Source of the DNA: an uncultured bacterium
GTDB taxonomy: Bacteria; Patescibacteriota; Minisyncoccia; Phycocordibacterales; UBA918
Assembly (NCBI GenBank): GCA_950073265.1
Contig: CATMPJ010000004.1
Span: forward strand, 1-47,313
Length of the DNA: 47,313 bases
Reading direction: 5' to 3'
Shown: positions 1 through 43,980 of the stretch, in pieces
How positions within the stretch are numbered: position 1 is the stretch's first letter
How the letters are laid out: each line of letters begins with the position of its first letter
Notes under the pieces: generated by a model
The model's database searches: none
Seen by the model: only the letters and a program-made list of their open reading frames with translations
Told to the model about the DNA's origin: nothing
Program-made: the position numbers and the translations under genes

Positions 1-1773
1 GAAATGATTGAAGATGCGCTTGGGCTCAAGATCTATCAATTAAAAAAGCAAGAAACCGATAGAAAGCTTGCAAAGACGCTAGAAAACATCTCGCAAGTCG
101 AATCACTGCGGCGCGAAGCGGCACCACATTTGCGATATTTGAAGAAGCAAGTTGAGCGCGCTGAACGTTCACTACAAGTCCAAGCTGAGTTAAAAACAGC
201 CTATATTGAATATCTGTGTCGTGAAGATACGTATATTGCAAAACGAACAGACATACTGACTAAGAGTAAGCAATCACCTCAAAAAACCTTAGCGGAGACT
301 GAAGACAAAATTGCCACAGTGCAGACGATTGTCGATGAGCAAGTAAAGCCACTTGAGGACAGTGCTGAGATACAGGAAGCTAAAGAGACTGCAGTAGCTG
401 CTACTGAAGCTTGGCAGCTGGCACAAAACGATATCAGTCAGCTAGAAGGACAGATAACGTTTCTAAAACGCCGACTTGAATCGCAAGAAGCTTCAAAAAC
501 AACAGTAAAGAAAATCATCTCTTACGACGCCTTATCGCAATTGGTTAGTGAGGTAGAAGAAAGTGTTGAGTCTGCTATGCGAAGCAATGATACTGCGTCG
601 CTAATGTCTTTGGTTCGTGATGTGGTAAAGAAATTAAAATCGTTCATCCAAGATAAGTCAGAAGAATTGCCTGAGCCGAGCGTCGAAGATGCTAAGGAAC
701 TAGACATGCTCGAAAAGAAATTGACGGTGGCCAAAGAAGAAATGATTCGCTTACTTGAGAAAAAGCAAACTGCCCAAGAGAAATTGTCCCTCTTACAATC
801 GTCACATGTGAACGAGCTACAAGAAAAAAGAGAAGCAGAAAAAGAACTGTTTGTGCTTATGCAACAGCGACGTGATATTGAAAGTACTTTGCGTACCATC
901 GATAGCGAATTAACTATGCTTGAACGTGACCGCGCTGATTTTAAATCTGAGCTTCAAGAGGCAGTCACTCTGATTGGCCGTGCTGCTGCGCAATACTACG
1001 AGCTAGAAATCCTCGATGAAAATGGAGAGAGGTTAGATAAAGAGGCAATTGTTGCAGAAGATAGAAATAAGCAACGTGAACGTCGCCATACTTTAGAGAA
1101 GCTGAAAATCCGCCTCGAAGAATTAGGTGTTGGCGGTACTGATGACCTGCTTAAAGAGTATAAAGAGGCGCAAGAACGGGATGAGTTCTTGGCAAAAGAG
1201 CTGTCTGATCTCAATCAATCAGTTCAGAACCTAAATACCTTAATTACCGAGATGCAGGCTAAGTTAGAAGAACAGTTTGTCGCAGGGGTGGATAAGATAA
1301 CTACCGAGTTCGATAAATTTTTTAAGCTCATGTTTGGTGGTGGGGCAGCAAAACTTGATCGGGTGACGGTTAAAAAACGTGGCGCAGATGATGAGGATAC
1401 TGAAGACGAGATAAGTCACGAAGGGGTAGAATTAAATGTAGCTCTCCCCAATAAACGGGTAAAAGGTCTTGAGATGCTCTCGGGTGGCGAACGGGCCCTC
1501 ACTTCAATCGCGCTTATTTTTGCCATGAGCCAAGTTAATCCACCGCCGTTTATCATTCTCGATGAGACTGACGCGGCGCTTGATGAGGCAAATAGTCGTC
1601 GTTATGGTGATATGATTGAAGCATTGGCACAAAAATCACAATTAGTACTTATTACTCACAATCGCGAAACAATGAGTCGGGCCGGGATTCTGTATGGCAT
1701 AACTATGGGGATAGATGGTGTGTCTAAAGTACTATCAGTTAAATTTGATGACGCAGTTTTAAATGCAAAGTAA
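1..1773 (+). CDS. smc: SMC-family chromosome segregation ATPase, 5'-truncated by the window edge
   Basis: Long coiled coil followed by a C-terminal ABC head: signature LSGGE, Walker B/D-loop FIILDETDAALD, H-loop ITH. IEDALGL matches the EEAAG-type motif that follows the N-terminal head. Confidence 0.9.
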   Translation, partial: EMIEDALGLKIYQLKKQETDRKLAKTLENISQVESLRREAAPHLRYLKKQVERAERSLQVQAELKTAYIEYLCREDTYIAKRTDILTKSKQSPQKTLAETEDKIATVQTIVDEQVKPLEDSAEIQEAKETAVAATEAWQLAQNDISQLEGQITFLKRRLESQEASKTTVKKIISYDALSQLVSEVEESVESAMRSNDTASLMSLVRDVVKKLKSFIQDKSEELPEPSVEDAKELDMLEKKLTVAKEEMIRLLEKKQTAQEKLSLLQSSHVNELQEKREAEKELFVLMQQRRDIESTLRTIDSELTMLERDRADFKSELQEAVTLIGRAAAQYYELEILDENGERLDKEAIVAEDRNKQRERRHTLEKLKIRLEELGVGGTDDLLKEYKEAQERDEFLAKELSDLNQSVQNLNTLITEMQAKLEEQFVAGVDKITTEFDKFFKLMFGGGAAKLDRVTVKKRGADDEDTEDEISHEGVELNVALPNKRVKGLEMLSGGERALTSIALIFAMSQVNPPPFIILDETDAALDEANSRRYGDMIEALAQKSQLVLITHNRETMSRAGILYGITMGIDGVSKVLSVKFDDAVLNAK

Positions 1774-37928: not shown

Positions 37929-39320
37929 ATGAGTAACAAAGAATACAAATCAATTTCTTCAATCGCCGGACCGCTACTCGTCGTAGAGGGTGTTGACGGT
38001 GCAAAATATGAAGAGCTTGTTGAAGTAAACGTGCCCGGTGAAAGTAAGCCACGTTTTGGTAAGGTGCTTGATACTTCAAAAGATAAGGCAGTAGTTCAGA
38101 TGTTCGACTCGACTGCAGGTATGACTGCAGATGAAACACGAGTACGTTTCAAAGGAGAAACGCTTAAGCTTGGTGTATCTGAAGATATGCTTGGTCGGGT
38201 ATTTAATGGAGCAGGCGAGGTAGCTGATGGTGGTCCAGAATTGGTGCCAGAACAACGTCGCGACATTGCTGGAGAACCGATGAACCCATACTCTCGTGAA
38301 TTCCCAAACGACTTCATTCAGACTGGTATCGGTTCTATCGACGTAATGAATACACTGGTGCGTGGCCAGAAGCTACCAATTTTCTCTGGGGCTGGGCTAC
38401 CACACTCACGACTGGCTGCGCAGATCGCTCGACAAGCATCCGTAAAGGACGGTGCAGACTTCGCGATTGTGTTTGCGACACTTGGTGTATCTTTTGAAGA
38501 AGCTGAATACTTCCGACGTGAATTCGAAGAAGCGGGAGCGTTAGAGCGGTCGGTGCTCTTCATTAACACTGCGGCTGATCCGGTAGTGGAGCGTATTTCA
38601 ACGCCACGTATGGCGCTCACGACGGCAGAGTACCTGGCGTTTGAAAAGGGAATGCACGTACTGGTAATCCTTACGGATCTCACCAACTACTGTGAGGCGC
38701 TTCGAGAAGTGTCTGCAGCCCGCAAAGAAGTTCCGGGACGTCGGGGATATCCTGGTTACCTCTACACTGACCTTTCAACTATTTATGAACGAGCCGGTCG
38801 CGTGAAAGGGAAGGCGGGTACAATCACCCAAATTCCAATTCTGACCATGCCTGACGATGATAAAACGCACCCAGTACCAGACCTTACGGGGTACATTACT
38901 GAAGGTCAGTTCGTAATCTCACGTGAACTATATCGAAAGGGCGTGTTCCCACCGGTAGACGTGCAAGGTTCTCTATCACGACTCTGGTCAGCGGGAGTAG
39001 GTGAGGGGAAGACTCGCGCAGACCATTCGGCACTAAAGGATCAGTTGTTTGCATCATACGCAACCGGTCGAGAGGTGCGTGAACTCGCGGTGGTTCTTGG
39101 GGAAGCATCGCTTGATGATACTGACCGCGCACACCTCAAGTTTGCTGACGCATTCGAAAAAGAATTTGTTGGACAAGGTGAATACGAAAATCGCTCAGTT
39201 GAAGAATCTCTAGATATCGGCTGGAAGCTTCTCTCAATGCTTCCACGAACATCACTTAAGCGTGTAAAGGCTGAACAAATTGAACAATACATGCCTAAAA
39301 CTGAAGTAACTGCTGAATAA
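37929..39320 (+). CDS. atpB: V/A-type ATPase subunit B
   Basis: [40 protein letters not shown]. Confidence 0.98.
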
Positions 39321-39325
39321 ATACC

Positions 39326-39961
39326 GTGGCTATTCTAAAAGTTAACCCAACTCGAATTGCTCTCCTTGGGCTCAAGAAAGAGCTCAAGGTAGCAAAAAAG
39401 GGACATAAGCTCTTGAAAGATAAGCGAGATGGACTCGTGAAGAAATTCATGACGGTTATCTATGAAGCAAAGAGCACCCGAGAATCAGTCGAAGAACGGC
39501 TTGGGGCTGCTTTTGATTCATATAGCCGCGCTAGCGCTATGACGGCTGCAGCAACACTGGACAGCGCTTTCTTAGCACCCAGTGCGAAGATTGATTTAGG
39601 GGTGTCGGTAAAAAGTGTTATGTCTGTAAAAATCCCTGAATTCACTGTAGAGAAGTCAGGTTCAGCTTTTTCGTACGGTCTCTACGAAACCACTGGTGAT
39701 CTTGATAACGCGATTGTAAAATTTGACGATGTCATCGTAGATATTCTTCGCCTCGCTGAGCTTGAGAAAACCGCCGAAAACTTGGCAGAAGAAATTGAAA
39801 AAACCCGTCGTCGTGTGTCAGCACTTGAAAACGTTCGGATTCCAAATCTCGAAGATACCATCAAATTCATTACTATGCAGCTTGATGAGCGAAATCGAGA
39901 TGCGGTGGTGTCTACCATGCGCGTTAAAGCCATGATCCTAGCCAAGGAGGAGAATTCTTAA
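39326..39961 (+). CDS. atpD: V/A-type ATPase subunit D
   Basis: NPTR..GHKLLKDKRD, IEKTRRRVSALE; GTG start. Confidence 0.96.
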   Translation: MAILKVNPTRIALLGLKKELKVAKKGHKLLKDKRDGLVKKFMTVIYEAKSTRESVEERLGAAFDSYSRASAMTAAATLDSAFLAPSAKIDLGVSVKSVMSVKIPEFTVEKSGSAFSYGLYETTGDLDNAIVKFDDVIVDILRLAELEKTAENLAEEIEKTRRRVSALENVRIPNLEDTIKFITMQLDERNRDAVVSTMRVKAMILAKEENS

Positions 39962-42680: not shown

Positions 42681-43247
42681 ATGAAAACCCGCAGAAACAG
42701 GTTGATTGAATTTATTTTGGTAGTATCTATCATAGTAATAATTAGTTGCCTTCTATACTTTATTGGTGCAGAGCAAATTGTTGCGTATGTTGGGGTTGAA
42801 AACACCTATCTAGTACTCTTTTTTATCGCTTTATTTGGGGGCATGACTTCAGTTGGCGGCACATCGTATATTGCTTCAATTCTTACTTTCGTCAGTGGCG
42901 GCGCCGACCCTATGCTTGTTGCAGTAGCTGCCGGGCTAGGAACTGGTATTGGTGACACAGTGTATTTTTTGGCAGCTAAAAAAGGTAATAAGGTACTCTC
43001 GGAGGGTAGGATAAAACACTGGACAGAATCCTTCACTGCCTGGCTACGTTCCCACGGTGAAGCTTTTAAATTCTTTGTTATCTATCTTTATGTAGGCTTC
43101 ACACCATTGCCAAACGACCCTCTGACCATTGCTCTAGGGTTTGGTAACGCGCGCAAAAAAGTAGTGATACCGGCTTTATTTTTAGGAGATACGACATTAG
43201 CACTGCTGCTGGCCTTGTTTGGCAATAATCTACCATTTATTGGTTAA
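42681..43247 (+). CDS. Membrane protein, DedA/VTT-like
   Basis: AAGLGTGIGDTVYF and TPLPND motifs; multiple TM helices. Confidence 0.7.
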   Translation: MKTRRNRLIEFILVVSIIVIISCLLYFIGAEQIVAYVGVENTYLVLFFIALFGGMTSVGGTSYIASILTFVSGGADPMLVAVAAGLGTGIGDTVYFLAAKKGNKVLSEGRIKHWTESFTAWLRSHGEAFKFFVIYLYVGFTPLPNDPLTIALGFGNARKKVVIPALFLGDTTLALLLALFGNNLPFIG

Positions 43248-43252
43248 TTGAG

Positions 43253-43280
43253 TTGAATTCTTTGGTATTTCCGGTACAAT
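43253..43280 (+). promoter_or_regulatory. Promoter of the tRNA-Asn locus
   Basis: TTGAAT-N16-TACAAT, about 160 nt upstream of the mature tRNA. Confidence 0.6.
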
Positions 43281-43310
43281 GCCTGCACTCACACGAGTGA
43301 GCTACATTTT

Positions 43311-43418
43311 TCCGCCGTAGCTCATGGTGGAGTGAGCCAGTCTGGGGGACTGGCGCAAGAGGTTGCCAGCTCGTTAGAGCGTCAACCTGAACAGCTTCTG
43401 TAAGAAGGTCGGCTGTTA
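43311..43418 (+). repeat. Split copy of the tRNA-Asn 5' half interrupted by three hairpins
   Basis: TCCGCCGTAGCTCA (43311-43324) equals tRNA nt 1-14; GTCGGCTGTTA (43408-43418) equals the anticodon stem 5' strand and loop. Confidence 0.8.
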
Positions 43419-43438
43419 CGTTTGAATAATTTTTGTGC

Positions 43439-43510
43439 TCCGCCGTAGCTCAGTGGTAGAGCAGTCGGCTGTTAACCGATTGGTCGTAGGTTCGAATCCT
43501 ACCGGCGGAG
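43439..43510 (+). tRNA. tRNA-Asn(GTT), CCA not encoded
   Basis: Acceptor stem TCCGCCG/CGGCGGA, D arm GCTC..GAGC, anticodon loop CTGTTAA, T arm GTAGG-TTCGAAT-CCTAC, discriminator G. Confidence 0.97.
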
Positions 43511-43617
43511 CAAAGAAATTATTCTTCACTAAACGATTAGTTGTAAGCAAAGCTTGCTTGAACTGCATTCACAGCTTAAATGAATATGGGCATTCATTTT
43601 GCTATTCATTGGTTCAA

Positions 43618-43645
43618 GTAGGTTCGAATCCTACCGGCGGAGCAA
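43618..43645 (+). repeat. Exact direct repeat of the tRNA-Asn 3' end
   Basis: GTAGGTTCGAATCCTACCGGCGGAGCAA is identical to 43486-43513. Confidence 0.9.
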
Positions 43646-43710
43646 TATATTTACATTAAAAAAATTAATGTTATAATAAAAATAGTATTCAATACGGCAG
43701 AAGAGGGGAT

Positions 43711-43980
43711 ATGTTCATGTCGGTCGTTCATTATTTTCTAATCGCATTCGGTTTCATTCTTCTATTTCTAGGTTTTAGAAAAGCTTTTCAACTTGGACGT
43801 TATCACGAGCAGAATCGACACCGTCACAAGTGTCCGAAATGCAATACCATCTGGGAACATGGTGGGCTTGCTGTTCTGGTGTATAGAGCACACAATTGCC
43901 CGAACTGTGGAACTGAAGAAAGATATATATATCATGATCCTGCTCTAGATTTTCTCGAGATTATTTTCAAGTCTCGATGA
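43711..43980 (+). CDS. Small membrane-anchored zinc-ribbon protein
   Basis: N-terminal TM helix, CPKC..CPNC; GAGGGG SD; promoter TTTACA..TATAAT at 43650-43677. Confidence 0.7.
   Translation: MFMSVVHYFLIAFGFILLFLGFRKAFQLGRYHEQNRHRHKCPKCNTIWEHGGLAVLVYRAHNCPNCGTEERYIYHDPALDFLEIIFKSR

Follow-up and report, generated by a model that had tools for sequence, protein, structure and literature searches.

One live gene for asparagine transfer RNA (tRNA-Asn) is flanked on either side by one half of a dead duplicate of itself in a 47,313-nt stretch of DNA (hereafter, the window) from an uncultured bacterium of the Patescibacteriota. The window is contig C4 of a genome of 703,588 bases in 30 contigs, which is 97% complete. 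The dead copy, which we call the outer copy, is interrupted three times: by a repeat element (E) where the D arm meets the anticodon stem, by the live gene in the anticodon loop, and by a second repeat element (F) in the T stem. E is an undescribed, order-wide family of structured repeats with an unusual tie to partial duplicates of the ends of tRNA genes and protein-coding genes. We lean toward reading the locus as the footprints of non-autonomous mobile hairpin elements in a dead tRNA-Asn duplicate that has been kept similar to the live gene by gene conversion, an account to which we give slightly better than even chances.

A tRNA-Asn gene nested within a dead copy of itself

ARAGORN and Rfam called exactly one tRNA in the whole window, tRNA-Asn(GTT) at positions 43439-43510/11 (all features given for the window lie on the plus strand). 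This intact, live gene (43439-43511) encodes no CCA, and positions 43439-43510 scored 75.4 bits against the tRNA model RF00005, which has a threshold of 29 bits. The Rfam scan did not call the outer copy as a tRNA; its T arm alone gave 13.6 bits (E-value 9.3). A repeat search returned three exact copies of parts of the live gene: 14 nt (43311-43324, identical to 43439-43452), 11 nt (43408-43418, identical to 43464-43474, tRNA nt 26-36) and 28 nt (43618-43645, identical to 43486-43513, tRNA nt 48-73 plus 2-3 nt beyond). By our own arithmetic, the chance expectation for an exact 11-mer repeat in ~520 nt is ~0.03. A fourth segment, 43530-43547, matches tRNA positions 43473-43490 at 14 of 18 nucleotides, counted by eye. 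The outer pieces are collinear with tRNA-Asn; those on the 5' side stop at nt 36 and those on the 3' side begin at nt 35, which puts the break in the anticodon loop. Once E and F are taken out, the outer pieces make up a complete tRNA-Asn (nt 1 to ~24, 26-36 and then 35-76). The nested layout, the coordinates of the repeats and the position of the break all agree with the original prediction, which had been drawn from the letters of the window alone.

The block opens with a promoter-like site, TTGAAT-16-TACAAT (43253-43280), which the original prediction had called a promoter. It matches at 9 of 12 positions, is the sole such plus-strand site before the live tRNA, and keeps both hexamers in a collinear locus of another genome (L110, described below); it may well serve as a promoter. 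A short hairpin, CTCAC-ACGA-GTGAG, followed by a run of T (43288-43310), resembles a terminator and also appears in the minimum-free-energy (MFE) fold. Outer piece A (43311-43332) corresponds to tRNA nt 1 to ~24, that is, the 5' strand of the acceptor stem and the D arm; its first 14 nt are exact, and its D loop reads GGTGGAG in place of GGTAGAG. Element E follows (43333-43407), and then outer piece B (43408-43418), an exact copy of tRNA nt 26-36 comprising the 5' strand of the anticodon stem and the loop. The live gene is preceded by a leader arm (43424-43438) and followed by a complementary trailer arm (43510-43524), recovered by both the repeat search and the fold. The two pair with each other and lengthen the acceptor stem of the live tRNA (22-nt arms, 91% complementary, with 14 paired positions). 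Flanks of this kind occur at 3 of the 37 tRNAs of the genome (Asn, Thr-tgt and Ile-gat), and the stem formed by leader and trailer differs by compensatory changes between the window, L110 and a related genome (G012) that has the arms without any outer pieces. Beyond the trailer arm lie outer piece C (43530-43547), the degenerate copy of tRNA nt 35-53, which ends in GTAAG; element F (43548-43617); and outer piece D (43618-43645), the exact 28-nt copy comprising the T arm, the 3' strand of the acceptor stem and 3 nt beyond.

Positions 43287-43650 fold at -142.4 kcal/mol (z = -7.0), and none of 100 shuffled sequences folded as low. In the predicted MFE structure, the outer acceptor strands pair, the outer T arm forms, and the live tRNA is left on its extended stem. 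The copies of the 3' part of the tRNA lie 132 nt apart, start to start, so that the locus has the bounding repeat of an integrase-borne island. The insert between them is 104 nt long and contains no open reading frame (ORF), and no integrase gene lies in or beside it. A search of the genome returned a single Phage_integrase (tyrosine recombinase) match, on contig C1, in keeping with the earlier remark that an integrase-encoding element does not fit the locus.

The possibility that repeats of tRNA sequence were wrongly joined during assembly was raised with the original prediction, and the locus is indeed built of 11-28-nt repeats in a 30-contig draft. Independently assembled contigs from three studies nevertheless span it with zero, zero and one differences, and L110 repeats its order in another genome; we therefore regard misassembly as refuted, with next to no residual probability. 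Among Logan contigs, those of runs X1 and X2, which may be the window's own source, covered 43150-43800 with no difference, and one of X9, from another study, covered 43150-43668 with one difference. Run X6 covered the locus in two pieces (43150-43354 and 43369-43785), again with no difference. Two metatranscriptome runs and one run of uncertain type contained at most 0.07 of the words sampled.

E is a strand-specific structured repeat

The first hint of E came from BLAST searches of 40 relatives, in which window positions 43330-43407 matched many loci per genome within the genus. Scanning one genome per species with a pattern yielded at least 120 loci. For alignment A1 we used 70 E copies found with a pattern that fixed CAAGAGGYTG and AACCTGAACAG, so that P2a and the second linker look invariant partly by construction, and the covariation evidence accordingly rests on helices P1 and P3. 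Written as RNA, E consists of (G)UGAG, the P1 hairpin, CGCAAGA, P2 (GGUUG and CAACC closing a variable hairpin), UGAACAG and P3, the last made of three variable pairs plus a C-G pair around the loop UGUAA. At the DNA level, it starts with (G)TGAG and ends with CTGTAAGNNN, and these termini are not inverted repeats.

In A1, 95.5% of cells were paired, compared with 30-48% (maximum 48.3%) when the partners were slid. Cells in which both sides had changed numbered 196, against 47 ± 7 in shuffled alignments, and none of 500 shuffles reached the observed value. G-U pairs were present on the given strand only, as in 17 of 70 copies at one P1 pair, showing that the structure belongs to the strand as given. 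Thus, E is a real, strand-specific structured element, with covariation backing two helices (P1 and P3). The first three hairpins of the original prediction are helices P1-P3 of this family. E had no match in Rfam 15, either in the window or, at E-values up to 0.1, over the E copies of four loci of relatives (L022, L025, L027 and L030). No description of E, F or nested tRNA genes was found in the literature on tRNAs, structured RNAs and repeats of Patescibacteria (also known as CPR), supplementary motif lists being outside the scope of that search.

We built a covariance model, R1, from E; because its genome searches were strictly filtered and only limited candidates were scored, the resulting counts are lower bounds. 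The model detected E in 57 of 61 genomes of the genus, with 0-64 copies per genome (median 8), in 52 of 141 genomes of the order, representing 47 of 127 genera, and in 1 of 150 other genomes sampled evenly across the phylum. The genome of the window itself has four matches: the window copy (43330-43410, 79.7 bits, E-value 1.3e-16), C13:18059-18158 (65 bits), C8:26857-26963 (37 bits) and C12:12682-12768 (21.9 bits, E-value 0.012). Elsewhere, E copies occur in tandem and nested within the P1 loop of other copies (L056, L096 and L170; L093, L148 and L152). Across 119 copies, the bases just before TGAG were preferentially G (68%), R (77%) and G (90%).

Names of Patescibacteria lineages (such as Saccharibacteria, Kaiserbacteria, Paceibacteria and Nomurabacteria) appeared in 62 of 80 record titles among the matches listed from the at least 120 loci; taxon names given by submitters are an unreliable guide to the breadth of E. 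Full copies were also present on contigs titled Azotimanducaceae and Patiriisocius (L083 and L097), where mis-binning or transfer is possible. Three pattern matches on viral contigs all lacked the GTGAG-P1 part and look like chance matches in coding sequence. Seven further loci (L066, L067, L077, L129, L136, L150 and L153) have a GGCTG form and no P1, and we read them as chance as well. Record titles among these seven include Bacillota, Alphaproteobacteria, Ignavibacteriota and Planctomycetaceae.

A recurrent footprint beside intact genes

About a quarter of E copies share an arrangement with the 5' side of the window locus: a truncated 5' copy of a gene, E, 9-22 nt of the target, and then the intact gene. 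The 40-nt flank upstream of E recurred within 300 nt downstream in 25 of 105 copies and in none of 105 shuffled flanks, taking the best of five shuffles for each; tandem E arrays account for part of the 25. The target piece after E measured 9-22 nt in ~14 readable cases. It is 11 nt in the window, a length that on its own suffices to make piece B stop within the anticodon loop.

The footprint was found at tRNA-Asn in genome G022, where the live gene carries an intron, and at seven other tRNA-Asn loci; at tRNA-Pro-GGG in genome G017; and at one locus each for tRNA-Val, tRNA-Met, tRNA-Cys and tRNA-Tyr. A tRNA lay within 400 nt of 25 of 130 pattern matches. The original prediction had considered a tRNA-targeting element, and this specificity is not borne out: msrA, rnhB and a P-loop kinase gene show the footprint too. 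Ahead of the intact msrA gene stand one to three truncated starts of that gene, every one of them ending in E; the insertions fall at two different codon positions, with E after GCAGGAG or after TTCTGGGG, the latter within the codons of the GCFWG motif. At rnhB in L130, E lies within the DE(A/V)GRG codons. The copy at C13:18059-18158 of the window's own genome (L179) is arranged as in L130, upstream of the RNase HII gene and preceded by a decayed copy of that gene's first codons. In L137, E lies within the P-loop motif. No E was found inside a gene without an adjacent intact copy, although no systematic search was aimed at such genes.

Of 25 tRNA-Asn loci of relatives, five have E or an E-like match nearby and most have none. 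The tRNA-Asn genes of G017 and G021 are 99% identical to that of the window yet lack the upstream block. Judged from these sequences, the flanks are dispensable.

Partial self-copies at other tRNAs of the genome

Same-strand self-copies of at least 11 nt within 350 nt were detected at 8 of the 37 tRNAs of the genome. The one at Leu-tag is merely the T arm of the neighboring tRNA-Lys, as is, in the same way, a downstream match of Lys-ctt. True partial self-copies are therefore present at seven tRNAs (Asn, Met, Lys-ctt, Cys, Leu-taa, Tyr and Thr-tgt), so related layouts exist elsewhere in the genome, a check that the original prediction had proposed. Upstream of tRNA-Lys, tRNA-Cys and tRNA-Tyr, the first 16-18 nt of the gene are repeated, and this copy is followed by a P1-like hairpin only.

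Downstream of tRNA-Met and of tRNA-Leu(TAA) come a hairpin, an E-like core that lies in a pseudo T arm, and 17-24 nt copied from the 3' end of the respective tRNA (G000:C8:26823-26990 and G000:C12:12645-12790; L199 and L200). Eight further cases in other genomes likewise have an E-like core in a pseudo T arm. A 7-nt stretch before the core is the complement of the host tRNA's T loop; a script found it exact in both cases from the window's genome, and by reading we found it in most of the eight others, with one mismatch in L149. In this T-loop variant, a 12-bp helix is possible with the 3' fragment or, alternatively, with the 3' part of the live tRNA.

The remaining case is a whole pseudo-tRNA-Thr after the live tRNA-Thr(TGT) (G000:C18 ~350-560, minus strand; L198). 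A P1-like hairpin replaces the 5' strand of its anticodon stem, and a copy of F sits at GTAGG. Its D loop reads GGTGGAG, like that of the outer tRNA-Asn, whereas the live gene has GGTAGAG.

A collinear locus, concerted evolution and introns in relatives

L110, in another genome, has the same order of parts from the promoter-like site through piece D. At acceptor pair 5:68, the window has C-G where L110 has G-C, and this holds for all four strands (5' and 3', inner and outer), which indicates that the inner and outer copies evolve in concert, by gene conversion or by selection. Outer piece C matches the anticodon stem of its own genome and, in L110, departs from the tRNA of that locus at 1 of 19 positions.

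In four relatives (G019, G011, G022 and G018), tRNA-Asn is split between CTGT and TAAC (nt 35|36) by an insert of ~250-290 nt. In the two loci scanned, the insert is a group I intron (RF00028), scoring 65.3 bits in G019 (L029, 1549-1800, minus strand) and 53 bits in G011 (L033, 1198-1493); the other two intron-bearing loci are L035 (G022:C7) and L054 (G018:C1). ARAGORN misses these genes. Bacterial tRNA introns have been described for Leu, fMet, Ile and Arg. G022 combines an upstream A-E-B block with a live gene whose intron is intact, which shows that neither feature depends on the other. Separately, in G021 (L007), ~230 nt downstream of tRNA-Asn and beyond an E-like copy, we observed a trailer arm joined to an nt 35-53 fragment of a different tRNA-Asn allele; the sequence of this fragment suggests successive tRNA-Asn replacement at the locus.

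Element F

F in the window is 70 nt long, begins with CAAAGCTTGCT and is flanked by GTAAG (43543-43547) and GTAGG (43618-43622). In an alignment of seven copies, its 5' end is invariant (GTAAGCAWAGCTTKCT), and each copy is preceded by GTAAG and followed by GTAGG, GTAAG or GTAAT. The copies come from the window tRNA-Asn, the tRNA-Thr pseudo-copy of the same genome, L110 (two copies), L093, L124 and L091. Those of L093 and L124 sit inside P3 loops of E. The L091 copy (1461-1570, minus strand) lies at GAGTAGG, in what we take to be the 3' part of a 5S rRNA gene. At tRNA-Asn, the F target is the 5' strand of the T stem. Like a miniature inverted-repeat transposable element (MITE), F is multicopy and has a short flanking direct repeat of its target. 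From its sequence, F appears to be a small insertion of the ordinary kind, with GTARG as its short target repeat. It accounts for the further hairpins that the original prediction placed downstream of the live gene.

Candidate mobilizing enzymes

Matches to Y1 (IS200-like) transposases were present in 33 of the 61 genomes of the genus. They rise with E copy number (Spearman 0.56, a value overstated by counting kin genomes as independent) and were present in 19 of the 22 genomes that have at least 12 E copies, as against 3 of 22 with five or fewer. Many of the matches, in ~30 genomes of the genus, are ORFs of 200-300 aa with a partial domain (for example, L182 2381-3004 in G018:C1). One Y1-like ORF that we scanned scored 35 bits against the RAYT model (cut-off 80) and 31 bits against Pfam Y1_Tnp (cut-off 23). 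A Y1 transposase as the mover of E is a lead, not a finding.

We rejected two other candidates. The reverse transcriptase domain RVT_1 occurred in 17 of 61 genomes and was uncorrelated with E copy number (rho 0.03). A TnpB/omega-RNA system, in which E and the following 9-22 nt would act as scaffold and guide, was likewise not supported, as Cas12f1-like_TNB was found in none of five genomes, four of them rich in E. TIGR-Tas arrays were also set aside, as their arrayed 36-nt guide RNAs are unlike E (PMC12045711).

Discussion

In the account that we favor, E and F, as gene-less hairpin repeats, would be non-autonomous mobile elements. E would probably move as single-stranded DNA, helped in trans by IS200-like or RAYT-like Y1 transposases, and would land after G-rich sites (G-R-G followed by TGAG), of a kind found frequently both in the D loops of tRNAs and in catalytic motifs rich in glycine. 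In a single-copy essential gene, E would persist only if an intact copy adjoins, and this would explain the frequent order of truncated copy, E, target and intact gene. The minimum homology for recombination is ~25 bp, on which basis the short piece after E is perhaps all that can be tolerated: longer homology would let recombination eliminate the intact gene. Gene conversion with the live gene would have kept the identical stretches of the outer copy alike. The block is probably transcribed from 43253-43280, and RNase P and RNase Z would cut out the live tRNA, aided by the leader-trailer stem.

The nested, matryoshka-like arrangement would arise when an E footprint at the 5' end (A-E-B) and a 3' half-copy (C-F-D) come to flank the live gene. 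Three routes to the duplication can be envisaged, and, on the sequences, all fit the order of parts. A small circle carrying the gene start, E and ~15 nt of target might integrate by one crossover in the shared 5' part, which would account for serial units; E might insert into one copy of a transient tandem duplication that is later trimmed; or, for the nest only, a tRNA cassette might insert at TTAA in the anticodon loop. The range of 0-64 E copies among congeners, the tandem and nested copies and the serial msrA units count in favor of mobility. Of the three readings offered in the original prediction, the footprint of a non-autonomous element is indeed the best supported, in that E and F are multicopy and the layout recurs.

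Several observations weigh against this account. E has neither terminal inverted repeats nor a target-site duplication, and by eye 2-4 nt of target are missing at readable sites. We saw none of the steps of transposition and found no pair of filled and empty versions of the same site in close strains. Simple insertion fails to explain the intact copy beside a quarter of E copies. Nor does insertion of a fixed mobile sequence explain the T-loop variants, in which the complement matches each host tRNA. The outer copy keeps exact acceptor and T-arm strands, which selection on pairing would explain as well as gene conversion does. ORF orientation around E is only weakly biased (58:36 and 57:42, from a crude ORF call), and we draw no conclusion from it. 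In addition to the inflation of the Y1 correlation by kinship, E was near none of the Y1-like genes at 16 loci (~3.2-5.5 kb, within 2.5 kb), and the genome of the window has four E matches and no Y1 match.

Another explanation, which we hold to be possible but on the unlikely side, is that the whole block is a functional chimeric RNA, in which an outer tRNA-like scaffold (acceptor stem and T arm) carries E as a module. Such an RNA would be a processing switch, as the original prediction had suggested, a decoy for tRNA-binding enzymes or a scaffold that stabilizes E, with the outer and inner ends competing or cooperating. The predicted pairing of the outer acceptor strands, with the live tRNA on an extended stem and z = -7.0, speaks for it, but such a fold is expected from repeated tRNA sequence anyway. 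The concerted change of pair 5:68 in inner and outer copies between the window and L110, the conservation of E in sequence and structure over 47 of 127 genera, the perfect 12-bp helix with two alternative pairings in the T-loop variants, and the placing of the only promoter-like site upstream of the outer copy also fit. However, an E-like match was found at just 5 of 25 tRNA-Asn loci of relatives and at neither that of G017 nor that of G012, outer piece C is decaying (14/18), the footprint at protein-coding genes has no tRNA scaffold, and a range of 0-64 copies among congeners is unlike a regulator. Thus, the pairing of outer ends and the concerted evolution accord with the earlier idea of a structured RNA, whereas the scarcity of the flanks does not.

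Two further accounts concern the break in the anticodon loop. A cassette of leader arm, tRNA-Asn and trailer arm may have inserted into the anticodon loop of a resident gene and replaced that gene, with E and F arriving later. The left piece of L110 ends in CTGTTAA and the right piece begins with TTAAC, a 4-nt overlap like a target duplication (TTA/TAA in the window); the cassette is bounded by inverted arms of ~15 nt, which the tRNA-Thr with a whole pseudo-copy has too; and the junction of a trailer arm and nt 35-53 of another allele in G021 suggests repeated replacement. We nevertheless consider this distinctly unlikely. The window and L110 are orthologous and so provide a single evolutionary instance, the arms change in a compensatory manner, like an RNA or single-strand stem and unlike a transposase binding site, and G012 has the arms without outer pieces. 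Moreover, the 11-nt piece fits the 9-22-nt rule of E footprints with no need for a cassette, and no transposase or integrase lies nearby, the sole tyrosine recombinase being on C1. It is more improbable still that the outer copy is what is left of a tRNA-Asn gene with a group I intron at nt 35|36, the intron having since been lost or replaced. The intron of relatives does sit between CTGT and TAAC, where the outer copy breaks, and there are short resemblances, seen by eye, between the leader and trailer of the window and the intron ends of G019. However, positions 43200-43750 gave no RF00028 signal at E-values up to 10, and G022 has the A-E-B block together with an intact intron. In addition, the piece after E in L058 runs a few bases into the intron, which indicates that the end of piece B is set by distance from E and not by the exon boundary.

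It is also conceivable, if rather doubtful, that E, with its separable modules P1 and P2-P3, is a new type of structured element, either one that propagates with gene ends or a functional RNA that rides on tRNA scaffolds. For propagation with gene ends, a gene start, E and ~15 nt of target, as a small circle or a taken-up fragment, would recombine by homology beside an intact gene, and conserved sequences of tRNAs and catalytic motifs would carry E between genomes. If either form of this reading is true, the tRNA inside a tRNA is the product of a mechanism undescribed in bacteria.

E has likenesses to several known systems. Like REP/REPIN sequences with RAYT and the hairpin MITEs of IS200/IS605, it is short, gene-less, multicopy and strand-specific, with copy numbers that are uneven between close genomes; as in the REP/RAYT case, it has no target-site duplication. 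Its copy number tracks Y1-like matches among the kin genomes compared, the genome of the window itself having none. In contrast to the palindromic doublet of REP, E has three different helices and long invariant single-stranded linkers, and, unlike REP at RAYT loci, it flanks none of the 16 Y1-like genes. IS200/IS605 elements insert 3' of a fixed tetra- or pentanucleotide; for E, a G-R-G preference (68%, 77% and 90%) is seen. REP and IS200-type elements are not known to be embedded in truncated duplicates of a neighboring gene, as E often is. With islands and phages that integrate at tRNAs, the locus shares a direct repeat of the tRNA 3' end (28 nt here and 23-24 nt at tRNA-Met). Unlike them, it has both tRNA ends duplicated, a gene-less "island" of 70-140 nt and no integrase, and the footprint also occurs at the 5' ends of protein-coding genes.

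Other precedents concern RNA genes. Group I introns are known from the anticodon loops of bacterial tRNAs, and the tRNA-Asn intron of relatives occupies the split position; in the window, a complete tRNA gene lies in that loop. Rickettsia palindromic elements are small structured repeats that are tolerated in frame inside conserved genes, including RNA genes, whereas the copy hit by E is dead and has an intact copy adjoining it. The split and permuted tRNA genes of archaea and red algae have halves that are joined by a splicing endonuclease. The outer copy resembles these in that its halves are parted at the anticodon loop and could pair through the acceptor stem, and differs in having two insertions and mismatches, in the presence of a complete tRNA-Asn, and in belonging to a bacterium.

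The bacteria concerned, whose genomes measure 0.5-1.2 Mb, are regarded as discarding all the DNA that they can spare. Despite this small genome size, 7 of the 37 tRNA genes have partial self-copies, linked to a repeat family with as many as 64 copies in one congener. A mobile E would be a compact, strand-specific element, backed by covariation, whose unusual footprint could show how selfish DNA survives where nearly all genes are essential. A functional E would instead be a structured RNA, abundant and so far undescribed, in one large order of Patescibacteria. The tRNA fragments, together with the group I introns of tRNA-Asn, will confuse tRNA counts, completeness checks and predictions of att sites.

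Neighboring features

Directly after the outer 3' piece lies a second, strong promoter-like site (43650-43677), which matches at 11 of 12 positions and has a TG extension. It is followed by an ORF of 89 aa (43711-43980) with one predicted membrane helix and two CxxC pairs, whose zinc-ribbon matches are sub-threshold. From their translations, the ORFs at 37929-39961 of this 0.7-Mb genome presumably encode proteins resembling V/A-type ATPase subunits B and D.

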